A stretch of 63,188 bases of DNA from a virus: the IMG/VR virus record IMGVR_UViG_3300045988_166537; one strand, 5' to 3'. The notes under the pieces were generated by a model. It made no database searches. It had not been told where the DNA came from and worked only from the letters and a program-made list of their open reading frames with translations. Shown piece by piece: positions 1,967 to 36,510 of this stretch (the first letter of the stretch is position 1; each line of letters opens with the position of its first letter). Position numbers and translations under genes: made by a program.

Positions 1967-4900
1967 TTACTTCACTCCTTTCAAATACTTTGAAACTGTT
2001 GATGTTGAAACGCCAAGTTTGTTTGCAATTTCCTGCAATGTATAGTTAGACGCTGCGAGTGCTTTGATTCTGCTAACTTTCGCTGTACTTAGTTCAGAAG
2101 TCTGTTTTGGCATTGCTCTTTCTCTAAGCTTATCAGCATTTGCATTATTGAGAATACGAACAAGCATGTTATTAGTTATGGCACCAGCCTGAATAGCTTC
2201 CCATTCTTTGTCTGTGATGTTAATTTCTCTGTCTCTTCTTGAAGATGCACCAACATCTATACGACTGGCAACTATAGCCTGCTGAGATGCCTTCTTTATA
2301 TCGCTAACCTTGAGATCCTTATTGTTTGCTTTCTTTTCGCCAACAATAACACTGGCCTTTCTCTGTGCTGCACGCTCCCTCGGTGCATTGAGTTCGGCAG
2401 TATTAAGTTTCTCTTCCAGACTCTTTACCTCTGATGCATACTTCTTCTTAGCCTCTTTTGACATAGCTATATTTTCTATATTTGCATAGTCCAGTCGAGC
2501 TCGGTTGGCCATAGCCTTCATGCTATTAGCATAATCTGCATACAGTAGTTCCATAGGGTGTCTAGCCTTGGATACTAATGTATTAGCATCGTCTGTCTCA
2601 GCCATCTTAGTACTCTGCTGTTTTTTATAGTCCCTTGCATACTCTATGGTACCCGTCTTATCAGTATAGGTTACTTCCTTGGTCACGGGGTCTATATGCT
2701 TAACAGGGGTATACTTCTCTGCTGCTACTGGGTCGTCCTTCTTATACTTGATGGTCTCACCGGATGCGGTCTTGATACTAACCACTCCTGACTTACTCGT
2801 GGGTCGCTTAGGATAGTACAGGTCTTCAGTGGTCTTGTATATAAGTGCACCTTCAGGCTTGCTTGGGTCATACCAATCTTTGCCTTTTTGATTGATCTTT
2901 GGTGTACCTTGTCGCTTTGGTACTGACGTTTCACCCTTGCTTCTCGAAAGAATTGTAGCAGCGCCACCAGCTCTTACAAGATTCCCGTTCTCATCGTATT
3001 TAGGCTGATACTCTTTTCTAAGAGCTGAAATGTTATTGTCATGCTCGCTCTGTTTATAGTCTAGCTTATGTTTCTCAGCATCAATAACTACCATTGAATG
3101 TCTAACTGCTGCTGCAAGCTGATCTTCTCCAGCTCCCGCAAGTGTCATATCTGTAATCAGATTTGAAATTTTCCCCATCTCAGTCTGAGTGTTCTTCATG
3201 ATCCTGTACTCATGGCCATTACGATAGTAGTGCTTCTCTCCATTACTATCTACTTTGCACTCACCGCCATAAGCAACCTTAGGATCAAATCCCTCAAGCC
3301 CCTTCAAAGGCTTTGTAGATGTGATCTTAACTTTTCCACCGGCATCATGCGTTGGAATACACATAGCAGTATCACCATCAAAGTCTGCTCCAGACAATCT
3401 TTCTGCTACTTTGCTGTTAATACCTATGGCATCCTGAACATCACCGCCAAGAAGTTTCTTTGCCTCTTTATAATTGTTGTTTACAGTAAGTATAGGTATC
3501 TCAAATGTTCCACCATGCGGAAATCTGATGAGTGCTAGCTTGGTTCCTGTTTCATAGTTGGGGGCATACACTTCTGTGTCCTTCATTGTTGGAAATGGGA
3601 TAATAACATGATATCTCTGTCCCGGAAGTGCTGCCGCCTGAAGATTAACTGCTGCTGAATCACAGCCCTCCGCAAACTTCTGAAGATAGTGTTTTTTTAT
3701 GACAGGATTCGTAAGGGACATAATCTCGTCATATTCTGCTGCTTTGTCTGCCTTGGCGAGATCTAGCTGCTTTTTTGCCATCGTTACAGACTGCTTACCA
3801 AGAAACTGCGATGGTAGTGCATTTTTCCATTCAGTCCAGTCACCCTGATCAGCTCTTTTATTTATAAGCCCCAGTTTTTCTTCTCCGGTCTTAGCATCTT
3901 TGTACCAATACTGTCCACCCTGGTCAACATCTTTTATAAGAGATCCAAAAGGATTGTCTGGGTCACTCTTTATATCTTTAAGGACTTCCATCTTTGGCAC
4001 GTCTTTTGTTTTATTTGTATTAAATATAACGTCAATGCCATCTGGCATATCGTCAGAATATACTGCCATACCTTTGAGATACTTCTTACCGTCTACCATG
4101 ATACGAACCTGTGCATATTTGGAATCACCAAGGCTAAGGTCTTGGCATCCCCTACGAAGTTCTATTGTTCCGTCCTTTTCTATTCCACCATCTTCGCTAT
4201 AACGAATCATAAGCCGCTTGGAATCAAGACTTTCTGGATATGTAAATTTACGATGGAATGTTTCACCGCCATCTGTTGAAAAATAGTCGGTCAAAGGTTT
4301 GACTTTATCCAGATCATATATTTCTGAATGTGGTATATCTGGTTTAGTAAGAACTTTCTGAGTAGTCATCTGGTTTGAATTAGTCGCCTGTGGAAATCTA
4401 CCATTATATACATGGTATCCTTCTCTTTCCAGAATGGTTAATGCCTGATTCATCTTCTCCTCAGAAATATGAAGCTCACGCTCAACCCCCTTACCGACAT
4501 CAACCATACCCTTCTTATCAACCTGCTCTCTCATGAAATCAGCAGCATTCCTAGCCTGTTTCATTCGACTCTCAGAATCTGCATTGAGTAGTGATCTGAC
4601 TGTGGATTCAGATATGCCCATCTGTCTTCCAATCTCTGTAGCGCCAAGGCCATCTTCTTTGAGTGACTTGGCTCTTGATACATCGAGCATTCTTCTCTCA
4701 TCCTTACAAAGAGACTTCTCAGTTCTATACTGTGTTGTTGTCATACCAAAGGTATTTCTTATATTATCCGGAGTTTCTTCCCAGCCGTCTTTCTTGAGCG
4801 ATTCAACTCTACTCAAAAAATCATCGCCATGCTGATATGGGTTTTCTCCAGACCCCCAAGGATATCTGCCAGAACGCCTTGGCATTCCGTAATGCTCAAG

Positions 4901-4969
4901 AACCTCAGCATCTACAGGTTCTGAACCGCATCCCAAATTTGATTTTATTTCATCTGAAATTGAACTCAT
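1967..4969 (-). CDS. Single-subunit RNA polymerase with two double-psi beta-barrels (YonO-like), 1000 aa
   Basis: The beta-prime-like barrel reads 'RFPHGGTFEIP...SGADFDGDTAMCIPT' (ADFDGD encoded at 3371-3388). The beta-like barrel reads 'DGKKYLKGMAVYSDDMPDGIDVIFNTN' (4013-4093). HTH-like segments lie near aa 105-128 and aa 975-998. Confidence 0.7.
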   Translation of the reverse strand: MSSISDEIKSNLGCGSEPVDAEVLEHYGMPRRSGRYPWGSGENPYQHGDDFLSRVESLKKDGWEETPDNIRNTFGMTTTQYRTEKSLCKDERRMLDVSRAKSLKEDGLGATEIGRQMGISESTVRSLLNADSESRMKQARNAADFMREQVDKKGMVDVGKGVERELHISEEKMNQALTILEREGYHVYNGRFPQATNSNQMTTQKVLTKPDIPHSEIYDLDKVKPLTDYFSTDGGETFHRKFTYPESLDSKRLMIRYSEDGGIEKDGTIELRRGCQDLSLGDSKYAQVRIMVDGKKYLKGMAVYSDDMPDGIDVIFNTNKTKDVPKMEVLKDIKSDPDNPFGSLIKDVDQGGQYWYKDAKTGEEKLGLINKRADQGDWTEWKNALPSQFLGKQSVTMAKKQLDLAKADKAAEYDEIMSLTNPVIKKHYLQKFAEGCDSAAVNLQAAALPGQRYHVIIPFPTMKDTEVYAPNYETGTKLALIRFPHGGTFEIPILTVNNNYKEAKKLLGGDVQDAIGINSKVAERLSGADFDGDTAMCIPTHDAGGKVKITSTKPLKGLEGFDPKVAYGGECKVDSNGEKHYYRNGHEYRIMKNTQTEMGKISNLITDMTLAGAGEDQLAAAVRHSMVVIDAEKHKLDYKQSEHDNNISALRKEYQPKYDENGNLVRAGGAATILSRSKGETSVPKRQGTPKINQKGKDWYDPSKPEGALIYKTTEDLYYPKRPTSKSGVVSIKTASGETIKYKKDDPVAAEKYTPVKHIDPVTKEVTYTDKTGTIEYARDYKKQQSTKMAETDDANTLVSKARHPMELLYADYANSMKAMANRARLDYANIENIAMSKEAKKKYASEVKSLEEKLNTAELNAPRERAAQRKASVIVGEKKANNKDLKVSDIKKASQQAIVASRIDVGASSRRDREINITDKEWEAIQAGAITNNMLVRILNNANADKLRERAMPKQTSELSTAKVSRIKALAASNYTLQEIANKLGVSTSTVSKYLKGVK

Positions 4970-4972
4970 GAT

Positions 4973-5539
4973 TTAAGCAGCCTCCTTTTCTAACTTTTCA
5001 AGAAGTTTGTCGAGGTGAATTATCTTGTCCATGATCGGAGCAATCTCCTCTGCTGTTGGATTATGAACCAGCACTTCATCCTGCTTGTATAGCCGGAGTT
5101 CCATCTCAATGTCGCCAGGAGCAACATGATATTCAAGACAAAATAAAGCAGCATAAACCTCCAGCTGCTCGATATGGTCTTCGATCTTTCCAGACTTACC
5201 AGTTTTTAAATCATGAATTCGTAATACATTATTCTTGAAAGATATGGCATCCGCTGTGCCAAAAAATCTCTCAGAATAAAATAAAACAACCTCTGTACTC
5301 ATCTTGAATCCGATTGCATCATTTACATATGCATTCAGAGTCTTCTTTGTACGAGGTTGTTTAATCCCAAGGTCTATTGTTTCTTTAGCCCATGCATGGA
5401 GCCTTGTTCCAATCTGTGCCATTTTCAGGTTTCGATACACCTCAATTGCTTTGGTATCATCATACCTGAGCCACGAGCTTTTACTCGCCGAGAAAGGCGC
5501 GTGAAGGCCTTCCAGTTTCAAATGCTGATTGAAGTTCAT
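4973..5539 (-). CDS. PD-(D/E)XK (RecB/Cas4-like) nuclease (188 aa)
   Basis: 'GTADAISF...IHDLKTGKS...QLEVYAALF' fits the D / (D/E)xK / QxxxY pattern. Confidence 0.6.
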   Translation of the reverse strand: MNFNQHLKLEGLHAPFSASKSSWLRYDDTKAIEVYRNLKMAQIGTRLHAWAKETIDLGIKQPRTKKTLNAYVNDAIGFKMSTEVVLFYSERFFGTADAISFKNNVLRIHDLKTGKSGKIEDHIEQLEVYAALFCLEYHVAPGDIEMELRLYKQDEVLVHNPTAEEIAPIMDKIIHLDKLLEKLEKEAA

Positions 5540-5804
5540 CTAAAATTTCCTCCTTGTTCTCTGGGTAAATAAAAGCAGCATACGACATCTTATCCATAAG
5601 GTTTACATAGTAATCCTGATTTGGGCGATGGCTTGCTCTTTTGCTCTCTTTACCTTCCAGTGCTGCCCATTTGTCCCTATACAAAATAAGCAGGTCTGGT
5701 ATTCCCTGTCTTTCTGTGGCATCCAGATGTATCACCATACTTCCTGGAAACCGATGTTCAATTTCTTTTTTTAGATCTGCCTTGAATTTTCCTTCAGGTG
5801 TCAC
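5481..5804 (-). CDS. VRR-NUC-type nuclease (107 aa)
   Basis: Track ORF 5481..5936 trimmed to the GTG at 5804, 9 nt after AAGGAGGAA. The longer ORF would run through promoter copy 1. The motif 'GIPDLLILYRDKWAALEGK' is present. Confidence 0.6.
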   Translation of the reverse strand: MTPEGKFKADLKKEIEHRFPGSMVIHLDATERQGIPDLLILYRDKWAALEGKESKRASHRPNQDYYVNLMDKMSYAAFIYPENKEEILDELQSAFETGRPSRAFLGE

Positions 5805-5880
5805 TAAAACATTCCTCCTTTCATTTTCAGAAAGAAAAATAGAAGCACACATAAATATGGCGCTTCTTACCTCTCTCTCT

Positions 5881-5906
5881 ATAAAAGGGGATGTATTTGC
5901 CGCGAG
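5881..5906 (-). promoter_or_regulatory. Conserved promoter-like element, copy 1 (weak variant)
   Basis: Minus strand reads CTCGCG GCAAATACATCCCC TTTTAT. It lies upstream of the VRR-NUC / nuclease / RNAP-like operon. Confidence 0.5.
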
Positions 5907-5990
5907 CAAAAATAATAGGGATTGTGTCTGCTGCAAAAAAAGAAGAGCCGTTGCAAATTTAACGACTCTCCTGATTGAGATAGATTATTT

Positions 5991-6251
5991 TTACTTGTCT
6001 TCTTCATTGTCATAATTATTAATGTATTTGTTCATTTTCATAGCCTTGTTAAAGACATCGTTGTCGTAATTGCACTGTGCTTTGCACCCTTCCCGAAATC
6101 CGTCTTTATGTCCAATGTTGCATCCTATAAGCAATGATATGCTTGCACACACACCGCCGTAGATACCAACAATAATTTCTTCCTTATGCTCCTTAACGTA
6201 CTCCTTTGCTGTCTCATACTTTTTCTTAGTTTTCTCTTTAAAATTACTCAT
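5991..6251 (-). CDS. Small membrane protein (86 aa)
   Basis: Track ORF trimmed to the ATG at 6251 after AAAGGAGGA. It has one TM segment, 'IIVGIYGGVCASISLLIGC'. Confidence 0.7.
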   Translation of the reverse strand: MSNFKEKTKKKYETAKEYVKEHKEEIIVGIYGGVCASISLLIGCNIGHKDGFREGCKAQCNYDNDVFNKAMKMNKYINNYDNEEDK

Positions 6252-6292
6252 AATAAAATCCTCCTTTTGAATCATTAAAAAGTTTCTATCTC

Positions 6293-6318
6293 ATTATATA
6301 AGATGTATTTGCCGCGAA
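6293..6318 (-). promoter_or_regulatory. Conserved promoter-like element, copy 2
   Basis: Minus strand reads TTCGCG GCAAATACATCTTA TATAAT. It lies about 27 nt upstream of the SD of 5991..6251. Confidence 0.7.
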
Positions 6319-6805: not shown

Positions 6806-6899
6806 ATCATTTTGTATTTCTATAGAGAGATAATAAAACTCTCATCTTCTAAAATAGGTAAAATTATTATATTAATATTTGATAGGTTAATATCCCCAT

Positions 6900-6943: not shown

Positions 6944-6982
6944 AAAAAACAAGAGACCCAGCATATTTCTATACTGAGCCTC
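6944..6982 (-). terminator. Intrinsic terminator after 6996..7250
   Basis: Minus RNA reads GAGGCUCAG-N12-CUGGGUCUC followed by UUGUUUUUUGUG. Confidence 0.65.
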
Positions 6983-6995
6983 CCGGTCCTTGATA

Positions 6996-7250
6996 CTATT
7001 TTATTAACTTGTATTCTGATATTCTCTTATGCTCGTACAGTTCATTTAATCTAGCACATATTATGTTTAACTCGTCTTCTGTACTGTCAAATCTAAATAT
7101 TCTCATGTTGTCTTTAATTGACATCTCTGCGGTAACTGTACCGCGTTTAGCTGTCCCTAATACACCCATGATAATGCCTGAAACTTGACCATGCAAAAAA
7201 TCGCAATGCAAACAATCAACTGCAATAATGTGTTTCTGTCTTTCTTCCAT
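6996..7250 (-). CDS. Hypothetical protein (84 aa)
   Basis: Track ORF trimmed to the ATG at 7250 after GAAAGGAGA. Confidence 0.7.
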   Translation of the reverse strand: MEERQKHIIAVDCLHCDFLHGQVSGIIMGVLGTAKRGTVTAEMSIKDNMRIFRFDSTEDELNIICARLNELYEHKRISEYKLIK

Positions 7251-7284
7251 AATGAATCTCCTTTCATGTTTAACAAATAGTTTC

Positions 7285-7310
7285 ATTATAGAAGATGTAT
7301 TTTTCGCGAA
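7285..7310 (-). promoter_or_regulatory. Conserved promoter-like element, copy 3
   Basis: Minus strand reads TTCGCG AAAAATACATCTTC TATAAT, embedded in the palindrome TTTTCGCGAAAA. Confidence 0.7.
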
Positions 7311-8126: not shown

Positions 8127-8140
8127 GAGATTTTTTGCTT

Positions 8141-14013: not shown

Positions 14014-14055
14014 AAAAATATAAAAAGAAGAGAATCCTCATTTGAAGACCCTCTT
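14014..14055 (-). terminator. Intrinsic terminator after 14067..14246
   Basis: Minus RNA reads AAGAGGGUCUUCA-AA-UGAGGAUUCUCUU followed by CUUUUUAUAUUUUU. Confidence 0.65.
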
Positions 14056-14066
14056 CTAATTTTAAG

Positions 14067-14246
14067 TTATCTCTGTGCTACATTTTTCCACTGTTCATTT
14101 ATAGTTATCATCCTGTCATCTGCACTCATAAATATTAGTGCCATTCTCATGCATTTAGCACTCTGCTTCATACTTTCAATACCACCTCTAGCTACAAGTT
14201 CACTAGACCTCTCTATAAAATGATTACTTATTAATTTTTGTAACAT
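14067..14246 (-). CDS. Hypothetical protein (59 aa), not in the ORF track
   Basis: ATG at 14246 after AAAGGAGTG and TAA at 14067. It lies between promoter copy 4 and a terminator. Confidence 0.6.
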   Translation of the reverse strand: MLQKLISNHFIERSSELVARGGIESMKQSAKCMRMALIFMSADDRMITINEQWKNVAQR

Positions 14247-14263
14247 AGTTCATCACTCCTTTC

Positions 14264-14289
14264 ACTATAGAGCATGTAGACTACGCGAA
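14264..14289 (-). promoter_or_regulatory. Conserved promoter-like element, copy 4
   Basis: Minus strand reads TTCGCG TAGTCTACATGCTC TATAGT. The hexamer lies 1 nt from the SD. Confidence 0.65.
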
Positions 14290-17235: not shown

Positions 17236-17913
17236 CTACAACTTTCTACTCTTCCGTTCATCATATTCTTCTTTAGATATCTCAATCCACTTTCCCTCTT
17301 CATCGCCTTCTGGTTCTCTGAAGAATCTATCGATTTCAATTTTTTCCTGCTGACCATTCTCAGTTTTAATTGCATAAAATACTCCAACAGTATCAGAATC
17401 ACCATTCTTTTTGTCTGTTAGGAAATCCTCGCAATAAACCTTAATCGGCTTACTCGGCATATATGGCATCGTTATAGGAAACATTGCGTCAACGACACAA
17501 CTACCCAGACCCGAAGTGTATATGATACGCGGGTCATTAATGTCGACACAATACGATCTGTCATTGTCTCTGTATTTGATTGCTCCATCAGGATATACCT
17601 TCTTAAATAACGAAGGCATTCGTTTACACTGATACCATTTGAAACCGTCACTGTCATGCCATGTGCACGTATCCCAAATATCATCAGTATCCTCTATAGG
17701 TGTCAATGGCTTACCGTCTATGAGTCTGTTGAGGATACTCTGCGTCATTTTTATACTGAATCCTGAATGCCCATCTCCACATAAACTTTCAAATGCCTTT
17801 AGTGCACTCCCATAACAAGCACACCCATAATCAAACTCCCCCCTCTTTTTATCAGGGTTCTCTTTTCTACATGCAATCTCAACTTCTTTTCTTGCCCAAT
17901 CTAACATATTCAT
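17236..17913 (-). CDS. Hypothetical protein (225 aa)
   Basis: Track ORF with an AAGGAGGAG SD. Confidence 0.75.
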   Translation of the reverse strand: MNMLDWARKEVEIACRKENPDKKRGEFDYGCACYGSALKAFESLCGDGHSGFSIKMTQSILNRLIDGKPLTPIEDTDDIWDTCTWHDSDGFKWYQCKRMPSLFKKVYPDGAIKYRDNDRSYCVDINDPRIIYTSGLGSCVVDAMFPITMPYMPSKPIKVYCEDFLTDKKNGDSDTVGVFYAIKTENGQQEKIEIDRFFREPEGDEEGKWIEISKEEYDERKSRKL

Positions 17914-17930: not shown

Positions 17931-17973
17931 AAAAAATAAAAGAGCCTGAACTAAATATCAGTCCAGACCCTCT
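17931..17973 (-). terminator. Intrinsic terminator after 17978..18142
   Basis: The minus RNA stem needs G.U pairs, so it is strand-specific. It is followed by UUUUAUUUUUUC. Confidence 0.6.
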
Positions 17974-17977
17974 CGTC

Positions 17978-18142
17978 TTATTTTTTAAATTTGTTCTTGA
18001 TACGATTTACCTGTATCTTAGCTTTGTCTTTAAGCTCCGGATGCAAAGTCACAAGCCCAGTAATACCTACTACCGCTGGTACTATGACCTGTCCAATCCA
18101 AAGTCTTACTTCTCTAGCTGTTTCTCTCTGTCTGTAAGTCAT
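17978..18142 (-). CDS. Small membrane protein (54 aa), not in the ORF track
   Basis: ATG at 18142 after GAGGAGGTG. The TM segment reads 'WIGQVIVPAVVGITGLV'. TAA at 17978. Confidence 0.6.
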   Translation of the reverse strand: MTYRQRETAREVRLWIGQVIVPAVVGITGLVTLHPELKDKAKIQVNRIKNKFKK

Positions 18143-18157
18143 ATCGATCACCTCCTC

Positions 18158-18183
18158 ATTATAGAGGTTGTAAATATCGCGAC
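18158..18183 (-). promoter_or_regulatory. Conserved promoter-like element, copy 5
   Basis: Minus strand reads GTCGCG ATATTTACAACCTC TATAAT. The hexamer abuts the SD GAGGAGG. Confidence 0.65.
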
Positions 18184-18228
18184 CAAAATAAAAGAAGAGT
18201 CAATGTTTCCAAAGACCCTTCTCTGTTG

Positions 18229-18450
18229 TTAATAGAAATAATTACTTAATATAAATACCTTATACATGTCATAACAGTACTTAACCACGCTATCAACCGG
18301 ATAACCCGTACGTATCTTTTCTGTTATTTCATCAATGCTATACTCAAATTTTTTACCATCGTTTTCGATGATTATATTGAGTACGTCATCCCTGATTGCA
18401 CAAAATATACTTCCGATTATTCTCGGTTTTAGTGCCTTTTGTACTGCCAT
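18229..18450 (-). CDS. Hypothetical protein (73 aa); the start region is disrupted by a (TA)6 tract
   Basis: Track ORF with no SD of its own. The well-placed SD and ATG (18492-18477) are out of frame with it. Confidence 0.55.
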   Translation of the reverse strand: MAVQKALKPRIIGSIFCAIRDDVLNIIIENDGKKFEYSIDEITEKIRTGYPVDSVVKYCYDMYKVFILSNYFY

Positions 18451-18492
18451 ACTATATATATATATTCATAGTCTGTCATATACTTCACCTCC

Positions 18493-18518
18493 ACTATAGA
18501 GGCTGTTCTTTACGCGAA
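18493..18518 (-). promoter_or_regulatory. Conserved promoter-like element, copy 6
   Basis: Minus strand reads TTCGCG TAAAGAACAGCCTC TATAGT. It overlaps the stop codon of 18494..18814. Confidence 0.65.
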
Positions 18519-21990: not shown

Positions 21991-22031
21991 AAAATATAAA
22001 AGAGACCTAGCATATTGCTACGCTAAGTCTC
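21991..22031 (-). terminator. Intrinsic terminator after the SSB gene
   Basis: Minus RNA reads GAGACUUAGC-N10-GCUAGGUCUC followed by UUUUAUAUUUU. Confidence 0.65.
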
Positions 22032-22577: not shown

Positions 22578-22613
22578 AAAAAATAAAGAGAGTCTAAGTT
22601 TCCCTAGACCCCC
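22578..22613 (-). terminator. Intrinsic terminator after 22620..22832
   Basis: Minus RNA reads GGGGGUCUAGG-GAAA-CUUAGACUCUC followed by UUUAUUUUUU. Confidence 0.6.
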
Positions 22614-22619
22614 TAATTG

Positions 22620-22832
22620 TTATTTCATGCCTTTTTTGACACCACGAATAAACGATGATATCCCTACGATAAGAAAATATGGCCACAGTATAACCGCCAA
22701 TATAGTCTCAACCATTCCAAACTTACCTTCATCAAAATCCGTTTGTGTTGATGCTATTATCATGACTATGATCAATATTCCTGCTACCACACATCCAATC
22801 AGTAAATACCACTGTATTAAATGTAATATCAT
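22620..22832 (-). CDS. Small membrane protein (70 aa, 2 TM)
   Basis: Track ORF with a GAGGAGGTG SD. Confidence 0.75.
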   Translation of the reverse strand: MILHLIQWYLLIGCVVAGILIIVMIIASTQTDFDEGKFGMVETILAVILWPYFLIVGISSFIRGVKKGMK

Positions 22833-22846
22833 AAAATCACCTCCTC

Positions 22847-22872
22847 ATTATAGAGGCTGTAATCTACGCGAT
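22847..22872 (-). promoter_or_regulatory. Conserved promoter-like element, copy 7
   Basis: Minus strand reads ATCGCG TAGATTACAGCCTC TATAAT. It overlaps the last codons and stop of the polymerase gene, and the hexamer abuts the SD. Confidence 0.65.
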
Positions 22873-28196: not shown

Positions 28197-28234
28197 ATAA
28201 AAACAACCCTCAGCGTCCTATAAACAACTGAGGG
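28197..28234 (-). terminator. Intrinsic terminator after 28288..29226
   Basis: The stem is CCCTCAG-N14-CTGAGGG, followed on the minus strand by TTGTTTTTAT. Confidence 0.7.
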
Positions 28235-31010: not shown

Positions 31011-31050
31011 AAAATAAAAAGGAGAACACCTTGTAATAAGGCATCCTCCT
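31011..31050 (-). terminator. Intrinsic terminator after 31076..31381
   Basis: Minus RNA reads AGGAGGAUGCCUU-AUUAC-AAGGUGUUCUCCU followed by UUUUAUUUU. Confidence 0.65.
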
Positions 31051-31075
31051 TGCTTTGACTATGTCGTAAATAACT

Positions 31076-31381
31076 CTACTTAGCCTTTTTCATGTCGACA
31101 ACTGTCTCTTCGTCCTCGTCGATTTCATCTTCTGGCTCAGGCAGTTTCTCAACCTTGTAACCCTTCTTCTCCAGATTCTTGATCCTCCTCTGAAGTATCT
31201 CATTTCTTCTTGATATAGCAAATGCGACTAATCCGCCGACTGCTGCTATTCCAAGTCCAATAACGATTCCTCCAGCTGTAGATCCGCCCTCTGTTGAATC
31301 AGTGTTATCATAGTTTGACTCGCTAACCTCGTTTACCTCATTCTCCATCTCTGTGTTCATGATTTCTTCGTTGTTCTCCAT
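31076..31381 (-). CDS. Small membrane protein (101 aa)
   Basis: It has an acidic N-terminus, one TM segment and a charged C-terminus. A TAGGAGGAT SD is present. Confidence 0.75.
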   Translation of the reverse strand: MENNEEIMNTEMENEVNEVSESNYDNTDSTEGGSTAGGIVIGLGIAAVGGLVAFAISRRNEILQRRIKNLEKKGYKVEKLPEPEDEIDEDEETVVDMKKAK

Positions 31382-31424
31382 AGTTTTATCCTCCTAAAAT
31401 ATAATTTATTTGACTTATAGTCTC

Positions 31425-31450
31425 ATAATATGACTTGTAATTTTCGCGAA
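31425..31450 (-). promoter_or_regulatory. Conserved promoter-like element, copy 8
   Basis: Minus strand reads TTCGCG AAAATTACAAGTCA TATTAT. It lies about 40 nt upstream of the ATG. Confidence 0.7.
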
Positions 31451-31456
31451 TTTGCA

Positions 31457-32266
31457 TCAGTGATACATGGAATATTCGTACCTCGGAGCTACACGATAGC
31501 CTATTCCAAGACACGGACGACCATCCTTTGCAATATCACCAGTGATATCTAGCTGAATGAGTCCATCTCTACTTACATTCCAGCCAATCTCATCACCGAT
31601 TGATGTCCTTTCCAACCCAATCTTATCGTAGAAGTCGTTCAAAGATACATAGTCACAACTATTCAGTATCTCATTCAGGTCATTTACTGCTGCGCGAAGT
31701 GTTTCTCTGTCGGATTTAAAATATCTTTGAGATATATAATCCAGACAAAGCTGCTCTCCGTCCCCCGCTACGATAACCTGTGTATTTGGCGCTGGTGCTT
31801 TCTCGATTTTATCTTTAACAACTGCCTTTGCTATCTCTTTCTCTTTTTCCTCACCAATAGTCTCGATAACCTTGTTCTTATACTCATGCAATGCTGCTTC
31901 AGACATAGAGTATGCTGTAGCTATAGCTGCATTCCGCTTAGCATTCACATTGTTGGCACATATAATACATACCACTGATGTGGTGAACGATATAGCTGTT
32001 GGAATGTAGCACTTCCACGTTGCCTGTATGATTTCTTTCTTTGTGAGCTCCACTTCTACAGGGATATCTTCGACCTCTTCCTCCATGAGCTCGTTTATCT
32101 TGGCCTCTTTTACCTCTTCGACTTTCTTATTTGCAGCTATTGTGCCTTTGATAGCAAATATAACTGCACCTGCTGCTGATGTAATCCCCAAGCCTATCAG
32201 TATTGCAGGGCTATTTTTTCCAGCTTTGTTAGCCATTTTATTTATGGCTTTCGTGAATTTATTCAT
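31457..32266 (-). CDS. Membrane protein, paralogue B (DUF6353-like), 269 aa
   Basis: Trimmed to the ATG at 32266 after GAAGGAGAA. 'NVNAKRNAAIATAY...EYKNKVIETIG' and 'GDEIGW' are present. Confidence 0.7.
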   Translation of the reverse strand: MNKFTKAINKMANKAGKNSPAILIGLGITSAAGAVIFAIKGTIAANKKVEEVKEAKINELMEEEVEDIPVEVELTKKEIIQATWKCYIPTAISFTTSVVCIICANNVNAKRNAAIATAYSMSEAALHEYKNKVIETIGEEKEKEIAKAVVKDKIEKAPAPNTQVIVAGDGEQLCLDYISQRYFKSDRETLRAAVNDLNEILNSCDYVSLNDFYDKIGLERTSIGDEIGWNVSRDGLIQLDITGDIAKDGRPCLGIGYRVAPRYEYSMYH

Positions 32267-32426
32267 CGCAATTCTCCTTCTCAATTCTATTCATGGCTTC
32301 GTTTACCTTAGCTTCAACCATCTCTTCAGTCTGCTTCTCCTGCACATGATCTGATAACATAGATATACCAAAACTTAACACTGGTACGACCATTCCTAAT
32401 ATTTTTAACCACTTATTATTCTTCAT
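32259..32426 (-). CDS. Small membrane protein (55 aa)
   Basis: Trimmed to the ATG at 32426 after CAAGGAGGT. It has one TM segment. Confidence 0.6.
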   Translation of the reverse strand: MKNNKWLKILGMVVPVLSFGISMLSDHVQEKQTEEMVEAKVNEAMNRIEKENCDE

Positions 32427-32431
32427 TCCGT

Positions 32432-33253
32432 TTACCTCCTTGCGTCTCTCGAAAAAGATTCTATTGTGTAATCGCCTGATACCGAAACATATGACGCGTC
32501 TCGCCATTCGTCCAGGGCATCTTCATCTGGCCCATACATATAATCCACCTCATATATTGGTTCGCCATTCATTATCTCCTTTGTTTTTCTATGATGAATG
32601 TCGATCCAATACATACCACTATCAATACTCCAACCAATGTCATCACCATTTGAAATTGGTGAAAGGCCTACAAACTCTAACCATTCATTAAAAGTTACGT
32701 ATCCACGCATTACATAATTACGATTGATGTGGTACTCAGCATCCATGAGTTCCCGCTCGTACATATCAAAATGCTGATTGGAAATAGGTTCATAGAAATG
32801 GAATATCTTATCTGGAGTCGTAGCGCCTATCTGATGATAATTGCAATATTCCCTGATGACGTCGCCCATTATCTCCTTATCAACATCTTCACCATATCTC
32901 TTTACAACTTCTCCGCGATACTGAGCTAAGGTTTCCCTTACCATTGTGTATGCTGCCATAAGCTGTGCCTGTCTCTGATGGTTAATGACATTTGAACCAA
33001 TGATACAAGCAATAGTTGACACTGCGATAACACCTGTTGGAACATAAACTGGTGTTGCAATAACTATTTTTTCCTTAGTTGTGAGTGGCTCGCCTTTCCG
33101 AAGTTCTTCTTTCTTCAGTTTCCTCATTGCTTTGGGTGTTTCTTTCGCTGCAAATATACCCGTAGCAATAACACCCACTGTGCCTAATACTGTAAGTATC
33201 GTGGGCGAATGTTTTCGTACAAATATCTTTGCACATGGTACTAATCCTTTCAT
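32432..33253 (-). CDS. Membrane protein, paralogue C (DUF6353-like), 273 aa
   Basis: Trimmed to the ATG at 33253 after AAAGGAGGA. 'NVINHQRQAQLMAAY...QYRGEVVKRYG' and 'GDDIGW' are present. Confidence 0.7.
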   Translation of the reverse strand: MKGLVPCAKIFVRKHSPTILTVLGTVGVIATGIFAAKETPKAMRKLKKEELRKGEPLTTKEKIVIATPVYVPTGVIAVSTIACIIGSNVINHQRQAQLMAAYTMVRETLAQYRGEVVKRYGEDVDKEIMGDVIREYCNYHQIGATTPDKIFHFYEPISNQHFDMYERELMDAEYHINRNYVMRGYVTFNEWLEFVGLSPISNGDDIGWSIDSGMYWIDIHHRKTKEIMNGEPIYEVDYMYGPDEDALDEWRDASYVSVSGDYTIESFSRDARR

Positions 33254-33280
33254 ATAAATTCCTCCTTTAAAGATGTATTT

Positions 33281-33318
33281 ATAAAAATAAAAGACCCAAT
33301 GCATTAAGCACCGAGTCC
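33281..33318 (-). terminator. Intrinsic terminator after 33326..33493
   Basis: Minus RNA reads GGACUCGGUGC-UUAAU-GCAUUGGGUCUU followed by UUAUUUUUAU. Confidence 0.6.
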
Positions 33319-33325
33319 TCTATAA

Positions 33326-33493
33326 TTATCTTCTTCTGTTTATCAATTTAACAATTAACCAGATAATAAATCCTATACATACGATCACATCGCTGAATAC
33401 CAGTATAAACATACTACCACCTACACTGACGGCAATCACTGTAACCGCTATTAAAATCAATGCAATCATTAGTAACAGTAATATTAAAAACAT
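33326..33493 (-). CDS. Hydrophobic peptide (55 aa, 2 TM)
   Basis: Trimmed to the ATG at 33493 after GAAGGAGGTG. Confidence 0.65.
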   Translation of the reverse strand: MFLILLLLMIALILIAVTVIAVSVGGSMFILVFSDVIVCIGFIIWLIVKLINRRR

Positions 33494-33509
33494 AATTGTC
33501 ACCTCCTTC

Positions 33510-33535
33510 ATTATAGAGACCGTAAAACTCGCGAA
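33510..33535 (-). promoter_or_regulatory. Conserved promoter-like element, copy 9
   Basis: Minus strand reads TTCGCG AGTTTTACGGTCTC TATAAT. The hexamer lies 2 nt from the SD. Confidence 0.65.
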
Positions 33536-33537
33536 TC

Positions 33538-33580
33538 CAAAAATAAAAGTGAGAAATCTATGATTTCATAGACCTCCCAC
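33538..33580 (-). terminator. Intrinsic terminator after 33588..33803
   Basis: Minus RNA reads GUGGGAGGUCUAUGA-AA-UCAUAGAUUUCUCAC followed by UUUUAUUUUUGG. Confidence 0.7.
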
Positions 33581-33587
33581 CTTTGTT

Positions 33588-33803
33588 CTAATGATTCCGC
33601 CATACATCTTCTCTAGCGAAAAACATCGGTATTGCTATAGCTGTCAAGAATACTGAACCTGTTCCATCTCCAGTAGCTAATATTACTATAAGACCTACTA
33701 GTAACATGCACAATGCAAATATCTTATTACGCCATGTCCGCTGTAAGTTCATAACTATACGCTCCCATAATGTCAGTTTTCGTTCTTTTGCTAAAGTCCT
33801 CAT
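33588..33803 (-). CDS. Small membrane protein (71 aa, 2 TM)
   Basis: Track ORF with an AAGGAGGAA SD. Confidence 0.75.
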   Translation of the reverse strand: MRTLAKERKLTLWERIVMNLQRTWRNKIFALCMLLVGLIVILATGDGTGSVFLTAIAIPMFFAREDVWRNH

Positions 33804-33831
33804 CTGTCATTCCTCCTTAAAATATATGTTC

Positions 33832-33857
33832 ATAAAGGGGGATGCAATTTTCGCGAA
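33832..33857 (-). promoter_or_regulatory. Conserved promoter-like element, copy 10 (weak hexamer)
   Basis: Minus strand reads TTCGCG AAAATTGCATCCCC CTTTAT. Confidence 0.55.
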
Positions 33858-34139
33858 TTATGTAAGATTCATATAAAAACGTTTATAATATGTCATTGTC
33901 TTGGTAGTTATATGAATGTATACCCTGGCACAGGGCGCAATGCCGATATACGATTCATACCCAAAATAATCAGTCAGCATAACCATGTCTCGAATAGTTA
34001 CTCTTGAATCGCCCCGCAACTTACTTTTCGCAGTAGATAAATTTACTTGCCAGATATCAGCTAGTTGTTGATATGTTAAATGCAATTTTTTCTTCATATC
34101 GAGCAGTACATCTATAAGTTTTTCTGTTTCCGTATCCAT
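33858..34139 (-). CDS. XRE-like HTH protein (93 aa)
   Basis: Trimmed to the ATG at 34139 after AGGAGGGA. 'LTYQQLADIWQVNLSTAKSKLRG' is HTH-like. Confidence 0.6.
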   Translation of the reverse strand: MDTETEKLIDVLLDMKKKLHLTYQQLADIWQVNLSTAKSKLRGDSRVTIRDMVMLTDYFGYESYIGIAPCARVYIHITTKTMTYYKRFYMNLT

Positions 34140-34140
34140 T

Positions 34141-34500
34141 TCAAATATCCCTCCTGTCAAAACAGGTCTCCCATCTTGCTCTTGGTAATGGCTTCATCCG
34201 TAATGCATGCATGATTTGCCTTACTGTCACTGTGGGATAATGTCCATCACTACGCAATCCGGCACGGTCATCAAAAAATTGCTTAAACCCTTCTGCAAGA
34301 TATATGCTATCTACCAACCAGGGATCTATCTCACCCCACCAAGTTCGCTTTGTATCAGGGTCGTATCTTTGCTGGATGACCGCCAATCCCAGATTCTCTA
34401 TCAAATATAAAGTACATCGATCATATACCGGATGATCACAAGCATATATAACCCCATACATAGATGTATAGTGTCTTGGCTTTTCATAGTGATATCTCAT
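34141..34500 (-). CDS. Hypothetical protein (119 aa)
   Basis: Track ORF with a TAGGAGGAAAAC SD. Confidence 0.7.
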   Translation of the reverse strand: MRYHYEKPRHYTSMYGVIYACDHPVYDRCTLYLIENLGLAVIQQRYDPDTKRTWWGEIDPWLVDSIYLAEGFKQFFDDRAGLRSDGHYPTVTVRQIMHALRMKPLPRARWETCFDRRDI

Positions 34501-34510
34501 GTTTTCCTCC

Positions 34511-34549
34511 TAAAATAAAAAGAAAGAGCCCTTGCTAAGAGCCCTCTCT
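34511..34549 (-). terminator. Intrinsic terminator after 34569..34952
   Basis: Minus RNA reads AGAGGGCUCUU-AGC-AAGGGCUCUUU followed by CUUUUUAUUUUA. Confidence 0.7.
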
Positions 34550-34568
34550 CATTTTGGTTCTGTCCTAA

Positions 34569-34952
34569 TTACTTTCTTTTAAAACTTGTGATTTCTCTCC
34601 ACGCCTGCTTTCCAGATTCAGTTGAAGCGATATTTCCTTCTGTCTCAAATTTGACATTTGTTATGACCCCCCAGATCAAAAGACCAGCATTAGCCAGTAT
34701 TCCAATTCCTGTCAGAGCATGTCCGATCCATCTACTGTGCTTTTCAGATTTATCTGATTCAGCTTTAAGCGCAAGCTCAGCTTCACTCTTAGCTCTATCA
34801 GCCTCAATCTTCTCAAGCTCAATGTATTTGTCGGTAAGCTCTCCAATTCCTCGAACTGCTGGATTGTAGTCTTCTGAATTCATGTCGATATCATTCAAAG
34901 CATCAATCTCTTCCAGAATCTCACCTTTTAACTTCTCCTTAACTTCCTGCAT
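34569..34952 (-). CDS. Coiled-coil membrane protein (127 aa)
   Basis: Track ORF with an AAGGAGGAT SD. The TM segment reads 'LTGIGILANAGLLIWGVI'. Confidence 0.75.
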   Translation of the reverse strand: MQEVKEKLKGEILEEIDALNDIDMNSEDYNPAVRGIGELTDKYIELEKIEADRAKSEAELALKAESDKSEKHSRWIGHALTGIGILANAGLLIWGVITNVKFETEGNIASTESGKQAWREITSFKRK

Positions 34953-34992
34953 AGTAAAATCCTCCTTAAAAATATAATTTTCCTACATTACC

Positions 34993-35018
34993 ATAATAGG
35001 ACCTGTTATTTGCGCGAA
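34993..35018 (-). promoter_or_regulatory. Conserved promoter-like element, copy 11
   Basis: Minus strand reads TTCGCG CAAATAACAGGTCC TATTAT. The TTCGCG lies within the last codons of 35006..35230. Confidence 0.7.
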
Positions 35019-35230
35019 TCGTCTCTGAGTAAAATGATACGTTTCTTGTCCAATAAAAGCTTATTTGTTGGAATCATAACATGTACTGAATATTGCTCTG
35101 GCTCATTCTCTGGGTCTGTCTGTTCCATTGAAAAACACCCATATACAGTCTTTCTGTTGCGTATATACTTTTCAATACAAGTTCCTACAATAGTCCCAAT
35201 GGCTATTACTACACAATCTAACCACCACAT
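35006..35230 (-). CDS. Small membrane protein (74 aa)
   Basis: Track ORF with a GGAAGGAGGGGG SD and an N-terminal TM segment. Confidence 0.7.
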   Translation of the reverse strand: MWWLDCVVIAIGTIVGTCIEKYIRNRKTVYGCFSMEQTDPENEPEQYSVHVMIPTNKLLLDKKRIILLRDDSRK

Positions 35231-35291
35231 ACTATCCCCCTCCTTCCTATGGTTATATAAATATATATTATTTCTCCGTCACCTGTGTACG

Positions 35292-35326
35292 GAAAATAAA
35301 AGGAAGAGCCTCTTAAGACTCCTCCT
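35292..35326 (-). terminator. Intrinsic terminator after 35313..35558
   Basis: Minus RNA reads GGAGGAGUCUU-AAGAGGCUCUUCC followed by UUUUAUUUUC. The stop codon lies inside the stem. Confidence 0.6.
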
Positions 35327-35558
35327 CTATAAATATAACTGATCCTTGAATTTTTGTTTTATACAATGTTTTTCCTAGAAGTTTTGCCATTCTATTTGCT
35401 GAAATAATTGTGGTGCAGGTTATGCAAACCTTATCAGCCCCCACGAAAGTTTCGTCCATTCCATAAATCGTAAACTTTCTGGAGTTGATGAAATCACATA
35501 TATCAACCGCAAAAATCGTATCTGCAAAAATTGTAATGTTTTTCTTTCTATTAAACAT
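35313..35558 (-). CDS. Hypothetical protein (81 aa)
   Basis: Track ORF with an AAGGAGGAG SD. Confidence 0.7.
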   Translation of the reverse strand: MFNRKKNITIFADTIFAVDICDFINSRKFTIYGMDETFVGADKVCITCTTIISANRMAKLLGKTLYKTKIQGSVIFIEEES

Positions 35559-35598
35559 AACTACTCCTCCTTAAATAAAAAATCTTAATCAATATTTC

Positions 35599-35624
35599 AT
35601 TATAGGAGTTGTTATTCTCGCGAA
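35599..35624 (-). promoter_or_regulatory. Conserved promoter-like element, copy 12
   Basis: Minus strand reads TTCGCG AGAATAACAACTCC TATAAT. It starts inside the U tract of the preceding terminator. Confidence 0.7.
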
Positions 35625-35654
35625 AATAAAAAGAGGACTCCATGTGGAATCCTC
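35622..35654 (-). terminator. Intrinsic terminator after 35662..35838
   Basis: Minus RNA reads GAGGAUUCCA-CA-UGGAGUCCUC followed by UUUUUAUUUUC. Confidence 0.7.
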
Positions 35655-35661
35655 GTCTTTT

Positions 35662-35838
35662 CTACTTACTATAAATCTTCTCTTCAAGTCCTGCTACCGT
35701 TCCCTGTAATTCTATCAATGTGTCTGTAAGTAACTCGATTAATTCGTCCTGAGCTTTAACCTTAGTCTCCAACTCACTTACTTTCCCAATTAACTTGCCT
35801 ACTTCGCATTTTAACTTGATATAATTATTCTCGTCCAT
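35662..35838 (-). CDS. Coiled-coil protein (58 aa), not in the ORF track
   Basis: ATG at 35838 after AAGGAGGAA and TAG at 35662. Heptad-like 'KVSELETKVKAQDELIELL' is present. Confidence 0.6.
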   Translation of the reverse strand: MDENNYIKLKCEVGKLIGKVSELETKVKAQDELIELLTDTLIELQGTVAGLEEKIYSK

Positions 35839-35873
35839 AATAGTTTCCTCCTTAAATGAAAGTTTATTGTTTC

Positions 35874-35899
35874 ATTATAGGAGCTGTAGATTACGCGAA
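35874..35899 (-). promoter_or_regulatory. Conserved promoter-like element, copy 13
   Basis: Minus strand reads TTCGCG TAATCTACAGCTCC TATAAT. Confidence 0.7.
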
Positions 35900-35901
35900 T
35901 A

Positions 35902-36048
35902 TTATTTGTTAGTTTTTGTGTAATGACGTTCTGCTATAGCTCGCTTCTCACCATCAAAATATGCATATCGCAATATTATCTCAGTATCGGTTTCTATGCG
36001 TCCGCCAGTTAGCTTGTCGTCAGTTGTTACATCTTTATTACACATCAT
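35902..36048 (-). CDS. Hypothetical protein (48 aa), not in the ORF track
   Basis: ATG at 36048 after GGAGGTGA and TAA at 35902. It is preceded by a canonical SigA-type promoter. Confidence 0.45.
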   Translation of the reverse strand: MMCNKDVTTDDKLTGGRIETDTEIILRYAYFDGEKRAIAERHYTKTNK

Positions 36049-36072
36049 ATAATCACCTCCTAGTGTATCGTG

Positions 36073-36100
36073 ATTATAACATCATACAGATAAAAGACAA
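36073..36100 (-). promoter_or_regulatory. Canonical sigma-70/SigA-type promoter
   Basis: Minus strand reads TTGTCT, 16 nt, then TATAAT, with a TGT immediately upstream (TGTTATAAT, an extended -10). It lacks the TTCGCG element. Confidence 0.5.
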
Positions 36101-36112
36101 GACTTGGCAACA

Positions 36113-36152
36113 GGAAAAAACAAAGGAGTTGTTAAAAATATCAACAACCCCT
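36113..36152 (-). terminator. Intrinsic terminator after 36165..36458
   Basis: Minus RNA reads AGGGGUUGUUGA-UAUUU-UUAACAACUCCU followed by UUGUUUUUUCC. Confidence 0.7.
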
Positions 36153-36164
36153 CTGCACTGCATC

Positions 36165-36458
36165 TTATAGTATTATCTCATACATACCTTTCTCGTAAGC
36201 ATTATATATTATTATTGGTGGTAGTCTCCTACCATCAAATTCAATATTCACCTCTAATCCGTCCACAGTTCTTGGTTTTATGACTGTTGTTGTCTTTCCA
36301 TCTGGATCAATAACAACCACTCCCCAATAGTCCAGACCATCTACAAAGCAAATATCGAATCTCTGATATTCGTCTACCCAATCAATGTTTAATCCGATAC
36401 CTACGTGCGTAGATTTCTGCGATACTGTTACAAATGTTGCCTTGTTTACTGCTTCCAT
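36165..36458 (-). CDS. Hypothetical protein (97 aa)
   Basis: Track ORF with an AAGGAGGAA SD. Confidence 0.7.
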   Translation of the reverse strand: MEAVNKATFVTVSQKSTHVGIGLNIDWVDEYQRFDICFVDGLDYWGVVVIDPDGKTTTVIKPRTVDGLEVNIEFDGRRLPPIIIYNAYEKGMYEIIL

Positions 36459-36484
36459 AACAATTCCTCCTTTGTTTTTTATTC

Positions 36485-36510
36485 ATATAAGAGGTTGTTA
36501 TTTTCGCGTC
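36485..36510 (-). promoter_or_regulatory. Conserved promoter-like element, copy 14 (variant)
   Basis: Minus strand reads GACGCG AAAATAACAACCTC TTATAT. The CGCG lies within the last codons of 36498..36917. Confidence 0.55.

Follow-up and report, generated by a model that had tools for sequence, protein, structure and literature searches.

A repeated candidate promoter, small-gene cassettes and hairpin terminators in a phage genome encoding a predicted YonO-like polymerase

Promoter sets dedicated to a phage-encoded RNA polymerase (RNAP) are known from T7, T3 and SP6, from N4, with its early promoters and terminators, and from phiKZ, whose non-virion RNAP uses TATG promoters. Morons of lambdoid phages, described by Hendrix and colleagues, reportedly consist of a promoter, an accessory open reading frame (ORF) and an intrinsic terminator placed between core genes, and the host-takeover module of SPO1 (Stewart and colleagues, 1998) is said to use host sigma-A early promoters and to contain no interleaved replication genes. 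Promoter-early stem-loop (PeSL) elements have been described in T4-type phages (PMC2839356, PMC4122927). The single-chain polymerase YonO of the Bacillus prophage SPbeta serves one late operon with a single mapped start, its promoter sequence and any need for extra factors having been left undetermined, so that how YonO-like single-chain polymerases find their promoters has been an open question since 2017 (PMC5467207). Here we analyse a DNA stretch of 63,188 nt, IMG/VR record IMGVR_UViG_3300045988_166537 (the window, taken as a whole), in which 14 copies of an element of ~27 bp, TTCGCG-N14-TATAATG, lie ahead of small genes and, in one case, ahead of the operon of a predicted relative of YonO. 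No description of this promoter, or of any promoter for this enzyme family, was found in the searchable literature. The element appears to be a promoter class of the phage itself, and the small genes behind it are closed by terminator-like hairpins, beyond which the larger genes begin.

The element, its start site and the phage polymerase

A strict search of the window for TTCGCG-N(10-18)-TAWWATG returned 7 matches against 0.07 expected, a number reached in none of 100 shuffles. With one mismatch allowed and then a weight matrix, 14 sites were found on the minus strand, which holds nearly every gene of the window, and none on the plus strand. They start at 36510, 35899, 35624, 35018, 33857, 33535, 31450, 22872, 18518, 18183, 14289, 7310, 6318 and 5906 (here and below, features lie on the minus strand unless stated otherwise). 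The element is contiguous: (T)TCGCG is followed by an A/T-rich block ending in TACA, by four bases, by CTATAAT and then by G or A. Its spacer is constant at 14 nt, and information content spans the whole element, the spacer sequence being kept as well (AAATTACA). With 14 co-oriented copies of such an element, the set follows a T7-like logic. None of the weight-matrix sites falls among the late genes, between 63 and 39 kb.

The motif accompanies the polymerase in phages of very different hosts. All 13 occurrences of CGCGAAA in Faecalibacterium phage FP_oengus lie on the coding strand, in sites of the form CGCGAAAAAT.CAGC.TCCTTTATGG. Arthrobacter phage Mudcat has 6-7 sites reading tCGCGTAAATTACAnGGGCTATAATG, Lactococcus phage 1706 has 11 reading CACAtGTTTTACATAnnCTATAGTAG, and Streptomyces phage Scap1, with 60% GC, has at least 6 of the form TCGCAAGTTTTACA-N5-TATAGT-GAGACCCC, in all three cases on the coding strand only. 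The polymerase homologues of the motif-bearing phages are 40-49% identical in alignment (41% for Scap1, by tblastn). In 80 IMG/VR loci picked solely for encoding the polymerase, all 104 matches to a loose pattern lay on the strand of the polymerase gene, as did all 46 in 56 prophage loci. The reverse test, a search of IMG/VR with the motif pattern only, retrieved at least 120 stretches, 81 of which carry proteins of this phage family. The upstream half varies among clades, as CGCG, CACA or CGCA. Motif and polymerase thus occur together in five phage lineages with hosts from two phyla; because hosts this different have no common promoter specificity while the phages share the polymerase, the motif would be the promoter of the phage polymerase.

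The position of the start is constrained by three independent kinds of landmark. At 33535, 22872, 18518, 18183 and 14289 the ribosome-binding site (RBS) starts 1-3 nt past TATAATG; site 22872, for example, reads TATAATGAGGAGGTGATTTTATG, with the RBS starting 2 nt past TATAATG, and the same 1-3 nt separate RBS and TATAATG in 15 of 48 related sites. In near-identical prophages a tRNA replaces a cassette for an 81-amino-acid (aa) ORF, and the 5' end of this tRNA, as called by ARAGORN, is the G directly after TATAAT; the tRNA of FP_oengus starts one base further downstream. Of 152 unique sites, 59 have a leader hairpin behind them, and in 36 of these the 5' arm begins on the G after TATAAT. RBS, tRNA end and leader hairpin all lying 0-3 nt past TATAAT, transcription is predicted to start there, at the purine directly after TATAAT, as at a T7-type promoter. 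Judged from the same positions, a start 6-8 nt below a -10 element does not fit; it would delete the RBS, and the geometry argues against a sigma-70-type reading. The sigma-A-type promoter at 36100-36073 provides a contrast, since its RBS lies 12 nt past the -10, in canonical geometry. Nor was a -35 element of the sigma-70 type found, as the upstream block TTCGCG sits at a fixed 14 nt and no conserved bases stand at the 17-nt position. TATAAT or TATAGT is present in the window, in Mudcat and in phage 1706, but not in FP_oengus, whose 3' block CCTTTATGG lacks the A at position 2 and the T at position 6 of a -10 and, by these bases, is not usable as one; two sites of the window itself, 33857 and 5906, carry CTTTAT and TTTTAT instead of TATAAT. 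Judged from sequence, the elements are not host sigma-A promoters. A second recurrent string, TCAAAATGG, found in all the phages, was rejected as a promoter because it represents a translation-start context (spacer plus ATG-G). The corresponding context AAAA-TCAAA-ATG-G occurs at many late-gene starts in three related phages (59983, 57832 and others in the window; L001/L002; L003, in our numbering), and is a common preference in the RBS-to-ATG spacer, not a promoter.

The putative reader of the element is encoded in the operon at 1967..5804, which consists of an endonuclease (5804-5481), an exonuclease (5539-4973) and the RNA polymerase (4969-1967). The last is a 1000-aa protein assigned to phrog_4291 (E=0), with Sigma70_r4/helix-turn-helix (HTH) matches at residues ~100-130 and 959-997. 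When PDB sequences were searched with the polymerase alone or with a profile of 5 sequences, only HTH regions were matched and no polymerase was retrieved, so that a fold search was needed. With the AlphaFold model (pLDDT 72.7) as query, the top Foldseek match was QDE-1 (E=3e-6, probability 1.0), followed by plant RDR2 (E ~1e-3) and then by Pol II/III and archaeal RNAP, which indicates a double-psi beta-barrel fold in the predicted structure. The sequence SGADFDGDT, containing the GADFDGD loop and hence a DxDGD signature, is unchanged across 5 distant and 33 close homologues. The protein is predicted to be a single-subunit two-barrel enzyme of the QDE-1/YonO-like kind with HTH domains at both ends, and to carry out DNA-dependent RNA synthesis. 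It has been read before as a YonO/RdRP-like polymerase with an HTH at both ends, common to an actinobacteriophage supercluster and to Lactococcus and Faecalibacterium phages, in a preprint that does not mention promoters or terminators (10.1101/842583). More than 8000 polymerase homologues were scored here, and 251 cultured-phage records match; no Bacillus phage is among the tblastn matches listed by organism, those being too distant. The homologue in phage 1706, orf75 (3083-6172; EU081845), was labelled 'structural protein' by its depositors, and that of ReqiPoco6 (1477-4197) bears the same label by similarity to 1706. By the depositors' label for 1706, delivery of the polymerase with the virion during infection is possible, and the enzyme would be packaged should that label stem from proteomics of virions.

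The polymerase operon has a copy of the element to itself. Copy 14, CTCGCG-N14-TTTTATAG, starts at 5906 and drives no ORF directly; with a leader hairpin and T tract (5875-5834) beginning a few nt further on, it forms an attenuator-like leader (5834..5906) ahead of the endonuclease-exonuclease-RNAP operon. In many of the 80 related loci a counterpart is found ~940 nt upstream of the polymerase start. These polymerase-operon sites share the consensus CGCGAAAAAAACATGCCCTTTTATGA, directly followed by a hairpin (GAAGAGAGAAG-loop-CTTCTCTTTT) and a T tract, and the stem varies in sequence while its pairing is kept. As the stem begins at, or within a few nt of, the last base of the promoter, it would be met only by the polymerase using that promoter, and this is the main reason to think that the terminators act on the phage enzyme.

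Cassettes, terminators and the genes behind them

The original prediction, made from the letters of the window, described 14 elements, 13 of them each driving one ORF of 54-127 aa, with at least 7 of the products being membrane proteins. The weight matrix and the per-site table bear this out, and 7 cassette ORFs have at least one predicted transmembrane segment. At 12 sites the element is followed by a leader of 14-43 nt with a GGAGG RBS and then by an ORF in this size range. The cassette hairpins (dG -15 to -22 kcal/mol) are followed by a T tract and start between 15 nt before and 24 nt after the stop codon. Over the window, 20 hairpins with a T tract were counted on the minus strand and a single one on the plus strand (dG -14 to -22 kcal/mol), and between 28 and 38 kb a terminator scan found 19 sites against 4.4 ± 2.2 in shuffles. 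Because of G.U pairs the hairpins fold better as minus-strand RNA (about -14 to -22 kcal/mol) than as its complement (about -4 to -10), a contrast that confirms the strand-specific folding claimed for several of the stems. A hairpin and a U tract past the stop codon are the marks of an intrinsic terminator, and RNA release is predicted at these sites. An explanation of the hairpins as RNase III-type processing sites was set aside because T tracts are consistently present. In several places terminator and promoter form a composite, as at 35654/35624, 33584/33535, 18224/18183 and 5972/5906, and phage 1706 has similar composites.

The cassette rule holds family-wide. A terminator follows 10 of 10 motif-driven ORFs in the window compared with 6 of 67 other ORFs; the figures are 6 of 9 and 6 of 55 in FP_oengus, and 26 of 51 and 80 of 1317 in the IMG/VR loci. 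The first ORF past the motif has a median length of ~75 aa in related loci, and in the window the cassette ORFs have a lower GC content than the larger genes (36.3% vs 40.5%).

The densest series of cassettes begins with copy 1 (36484..36510), a variant reading GACGCG-N14-TTATATG with a weight-matrix score of 30.8, which precedes a 97-aa ORF (36165..36458) and a terminator hairpin with T tract (36119..36156; dG -21.2 kcal/mol vs -8.6 for the complement). Copy 2 (35873..35899; score 45.1) precedes a 58-aa ORF (35662..35838), whose terminator (35632..35654; -15.0 kcal/mol) has copy 3 (35598..35624) directly after it. Behind copy 3, which like copies 4 and 7 was found by pattern and weight matrix, lies the 81-aa ORF (35313..35558), present in the window only; a terminator overlapping its end (35299..35328; -16.6 kcal/mol) strands a 74-aa ORF (35230-35006). 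Copy 4 (34992..35018) is followed by an ORF of 127 aa with 1 transmembrane segment (34569..34952) and by a terminator (34519..34550; -17.1 kcal/mol vs -4.9 for the complement), and copy 5 (33831..33857; score 37.0), with a 3' half of the FP_oengus type, CCCTTTATG, by one of 71 aa, also with 1 segment (33588..33803). The terminator of the latter (33544..33584; -22.4 kcal/mol) leads directly into copy 6 (33509..33535), where the RBS starts 3 nt past TATAATG and the ORF has 55 aa and 2 transmembrane segments (33326..33493), closed at 33287..33323 (-19.9 kcal/mol vs -4.5 for the complement). Copy 7 (31424..31450) drives a 101-aa ORF with 1 segment (31076..31381), terminated at 31018..31051 (-17.7 kcal/mol).

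The remaining cassettes are spread over the rest of the early and middle region. That at 22586..22872 has its promoter at 22846-22872, an ORF of 70 aa with 2 transmembrane segments (22832-22620) and a terminator at 22614-22586. In the cassette at 18191..18518 (promoter 18492-18518, terminator ~18224-18191) the RBS and ATG belong to a 16-codon mini-ORF, followed by (AT)6 and a 73-aa ORF (18450-18229) without an RBS of its own. The run between the strong-RBS mini-ORF and the 73-aa ORF is (AT)6A (18453-18465); if a single AT were lost the two frames would be joined, and the run may represent either a switch prone to slippage or a frameshift of recent origin. Next come the cassettes at 17937..18183 (promoter 18157-18183; 54-aa ORF with 1 transmembrane segment, 18142-17978; terminator 17974-17937), 14021..14289 (promoter 14263-14289; 59-aa ORF, 14246-14067; terminator 14061-14021), 6949..7310 (promoter 7284-7310; 84-aa ORF, 7250-6996; terminator 6985-6949) and 5940..6318 (promoter 6292-6318; 86-aa ORF with 1 transmembrane segment, 6251-5991; terminator 5972-5940).

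Only ~3.1 kb (the cassette ORFs) of the 35.6-kb early/middle region lie directly behind copies of the promoter. Eight genes had been singled out as stranded behind terminators, starting at 34500, 33253, 30987, 28181, 22555, 21975, 17913 and 13999, and each was found to be so. According to the per-site table, six of them start 18-33 nt past a terminator: the 119-aa gene 34500 begins 18 nt on, the DUF6353 gene 33253 begins 33 nt on and gene 30987 begins 30 nt on, while the ssDNA-binding/annealing gene at 22555 lies behind the 22872 cassette, the Tad3-like gene at 17913 behind the 18183 cassette and gene 13999 behind the 14289 cassette. The intergenic sequences show a comparably short gap for 28181, which with the DNA polymerase-primase operon follows the terminator 28205..28234 (-16.3 kcal/mol), and for 21975, behind 22002..22031 (-18.3 kcal/mol). 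Between these terminators and the eight genes there is no motif and space for an RBS only. Matches to sigma-70-like promoters are not enriched (32 vs 32.3 ± 6.0, and 31 vs 30.5 ± 5.7). One correction applies at 36073..36100, where a good sigma-A-type promoter (TTGTCT, 16 nt, TGtTATAAT with an extended -10), kept in the near-identical prophage L209, precedes a 48-aa ORF (36048-35902). Nearly all early/middle genes lie behind at least one terminator-like hairpin, in support of the proposal that expression of the replication genes needs terminator read-through. The Tad3-like gene (17236-17913), directly after the terminator of the 18183 cassette, matches Pfam Tad3, a Type I Thoeris inhibitor (E=1e-32), and by this match is likely an anti-defence gene.

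Comparison with near-identical prophages, L209 and a second one, L212, among them, demonstrates that the cassettes are exchangeable modules, with breakpoints at or near the motif and the terminators (36482, 35887-35899, 35595 and 35307). Homology to the relatives breaks at 36482, 2 nt past copy 1; the 97-aa ORF behind it is replaced in L209 by an unrelated 96-aa ORF and is absent from L212, in which the 5' half of copy 1 is joined to the 3' half of copy 2 and two cassettes are deleted. Likewise, homology ends at 35595, 3 nt past copy 3, and resumes at 35307, so that the 81-aa ORF with its terminator has been inserted between copy 3 and the 74-aa ORF, an example of how genes come to be stranded. 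The gene at 30987, of 182 aa, is present in some relatives and absent from others. In L209, copy 3 directly drives a predicted suppressor tRNA (7135-7209; anticodon TTA, reading UAA).

Weighing the explanations

On balance we think it probable that at each of the 14 sites the phage polymerase starts on the purine that follows TATAAT, that the terminators stop most of its transcripts, that read-through feeds the core genes and that the amount of polymerase is limited or autoregulated by the leader terminator. The elements would form the phage's own promoter class, read by its two-barrel polymerase, whose terminal HTH domains could contact the upstream half. Thirteen promoters would each fire into one small accessory gene, often for a membrane protein, with a hairpin-plus-U terminator at its end; relatives may have a tRNA or a non-coding RNA as payload instead. 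The core genes (DUF6353, DNA polymerase-primase, annealing protein, helicase and the polymerase operon), having no promoter of their own beyond the leader copy, would depend on read-through transcripts. The outcome would be high levels of the small early proteins and lower levels of the core products, possibly regulated in time, and a temporal switch through regulated read-through is possible. By placing its own promoter copy immediately before a leader terminator, the polymerase operon probably sets or autoregulates the dose of the enzyme, and the promoter and terminator repeats would act as recombination joints.

Several observations weigh against this reading. The pairing of enzyme and promoter is drawn from co-occurrence and geometry, and the closest GenBank relative, MT835495, with 63% polymerase identity, has just two copies of the motif, at 607 and 1195, both with a leader hairpin and just upstream of the polymerase operon; elsewhere in its 69.8 kb there is no copy, and no alternative motif was found. 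The perfect TATAAT of the window and Mudcat could possibly be bound by the host sigma-A holoenzyme. Confidence in the polymerase model is moderate (pLDDT 72.7), and it aligns to QDE-1 with low global TM-scores (0.24-0.30). The flap domain, on which cellular RNAPs rely for hairpin-dependent termination, is missing from YonO (PMC5467207), so a relative of YonO might ignore the hairpins. Finally, in a temperate phage the host RNAP must make the first polymerase on induction, and no convincing host promoter was found before the polymerase operon.

In the original prediction, as we read it, the elements were early host sigma-A promoters used by a terminator-sensitive host RNAP, which would make only the small proteins and the RNAP operon, with a terminator-insensitive or antiterminated polymerase, possibly the YonO-like enzyme, reading the whole strand later. 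Such a division of labour would fit the perfect TATAAT at most sites of the window, the need of a temperate phage to begin its lytic programme with host RNAP, the absence of motif copies from the late region between 63 and 39 kb and the role of YonO, without its flap domain, in transcribing the late genes of SPbeta (PMC5467207). It is nevertheless improbable in our view. A 14-nt spacer and an upstream hexamer unlike TTGACA do not make a sigma-A promoter, the RBS, tRNA and leader hairpin at 0-3 nt leave no room for a start 6-8 nt on, and CCTTTATGG of FP_oengus is without essential -10 bases. Moreover, the spacer is conserved and the element is common to phages of Arthrobacter, Streptomyces, Lactococcus and Clostridia that share the polymerase; and a conserved leader terminator precedes even the polymerase operon, which speaks against its being freely made early. 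One could also imagine that host core RNAP is redirected by a phage factor, either sigma-like or an activator acting on the CGCG...TACA block. A block near -25 to -30 combined with a -10-like hexamer does recall the middle promoters of T4, where MotA and AsiA appropriate sigma, and three genes of unknown function (37587 to 36498) upstream of the first motif, without a motif of their own, could encode such a factor. Yet the start-site constraint opposes any -10 of the sigma-70 family, no sigma-like or MotA-like protein was recognized among ten early proteins tested, and hosts of two phyla would need to accept the same factor, all of which makes this proposal very improbable.

A further possibility keeps the promoters as we favour them but assigns the hairpins another task, that of insulating the lytic genes from host RNAP read-through in the lysogen or of stabilizing or processing transcript ends, in which case the core genes would not be stranded. 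A 5'- or 3'-terminal stem-loop is known to stabilize mRNA in Firmicutes, a prophage must block stray host transcription, and enzymes of the YonO type are without a flap domain (PMC5467207). We regard this as unlikely, since the leader hairpin, at or within a few nt of the last base of the promoter, is met only by a polymerase using that promoter, and the T tracts consistently following the stems are needless for plain stabilizers. The same cassettes occur in phage 1706, which we take to be virulent and which would then have no lysogen to insulate, so the cassette design would not be a lysogeny device. More tentatively, and with clear doubt, the favoured reading may be extended to a self-contained transcription system made up of the HTH-fused two-barrel polymerase, possibly delivered by the virion, and its 27-bp promoter, in which the leader terminator creates a self-amplifying, attenuated loop serving as a timing or lysis-lysogeny switch and the repeats double as recombination joints for accessory genes. 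If this were true, independence from host sigma factors could explain how one lineage spans Actinobacteria and Firmicutes.

Genome context and comparison with known systems

The ends of the window (1-55 and 63134-63188) duplicate ~55 nt, so the assembly represents a closed, circular genome. Terminase, portal, capsid protease, tape measure, tail genes and endolysin occupy 63 to 39 kb, and the integrase lies on the plus strand (37705-38934). These are followed by a run of small genes with three DUF6353 genes (37.6 to 28.3 kb), by the DNA polymerase-primase, ssDNA-annealing protein and helicase (28.2 to 18.8 kb), by further small genes between the helicase and the polymerase operon in the order of transcription, and by the endonuclease-exonuclease-polymerase operon (5.8 to 2.0 kb). 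The gene order is the same as in FP_oengus. A near-identical phage (93-98% identity) is integrated beside bacterial genes in contigs of 200-725 kb from gut metagenomes, and the phage is therefore temperate; related polymerases are found chiefly in genomes of Lachnospiraceae and other Clostridia. By our reading of the gene order it appears to be a temperate siphophage of a gut Clostridia host and a relative of FP_oengus.

A few other features deserve mention. The sole plus-strand gene apart from the integrase (6431-6930) encodes 124 aa with one hydrophobic segment (6431-6805), lies between two minus-strand cassettes and ends at the sole strong terminator of the plus strand (6900-6930); expression in the lysogen is a possibility. 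A 455-nt non-coding gap, at 7850-8130, contains copies of TGCCCACTTT / AAGTGGGCA in both orientations, with 5 exact copies on the minus strand and further degenerate ones; the repeats look like iterons and may mark an origin of replication or a series of protein-binding sites. Just past the polymerase operon is a G+C-rich, palindrome-rich non-coding stretch (1384-1693; GGGGGGGGCTGTAAAAATGCACCCCCTCCC, TTCCCCGGGGGAA), and relatives have cos ends at the equivalent position. The octamer TGATATTT, often intragenic, has 33 copies in FP_oengus, all on the coding strand, and [TG][TG]ATATTT is distributed 49 vs 10 between the strands of the window; a role as a Chi-like or polarity signal is conceivable. 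In the window there were no Rfam matches at the gathering threshold, and no tRNA was found by ARAGORN.

For a large sister family of YonO, the present work supplies a candidate promoter consensus with a predicted start, variants in four host groups and matched terminators. It also offers a mechanistic reason for a supercluster that crosses phyla and differs in GC from its hosts (10.1101/842583), and carries over to temperate gut phages a notion that came from T4-type phages, in which regulatory repeats double as joints for recombination. As a tool, a polymerase-promoter-terminator set that is compact, orthogonal and working in Gram-positive bacteria would be useful.

Like YonO, the polymerase described here is predicted to be a single-chain two-barrel RNAP of a temperate Firmicute phage with a catalytic loop of the DxDGD type, and the mapped YonO start precedes an unannotated non-coding RNA (PMC5467207), much as the element does in some relatives. 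Unlike the YonO promoter, however, the motif marks the early/middle region and is absent from the late genes. With the promoter sets of other phage RNAPs it has in common the many co-oriented copies, the contiguous element ending at the start, the A/T-rich melting block and, as predicted here, the purine start, along with hairpin-U terminators, here presumably leaky, that set expression ratios; the difference is that the enzyme here appears to belong to the QDE-1/YonO-like family and is HTH-fused. The SPO1 module resembles the cassettes in its dense tiny genes, which have strong promoters, strong RBSs and terminators and open the infection programme, whereas the cassettes are interleaved with replication genes and their promoters are not of the sigma-A type. 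Morons share with them the variation among relatives and the deviant base composition, but use host promoters and are defined by expression in the prophage, while the cassettes lie in the early lytic region behind one shared phage-specific promoter and are also present in phage 1706. PeSL elements come close too, as repeated composites of terminator stem-loop and promoter flanking small variable ORFs of unknown function, and in both systems close relatives differ by indels and replacements whose breakpoints lie within the motif or near it. On the other hand, PeSLs carry host sigma-70 early promoters and occur in lytic myoviruses, whereas the geometry here is non-sigma, the phage is of the temperate siphovirus type, core replication genes lie downstream of the cassettes and the promoter tracks a phage polymerase. 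It therefore seems, by analogy, that the architecture is akin to PeSL cassettes and morons, and the promoter logic to that of a T7-type polymerase.

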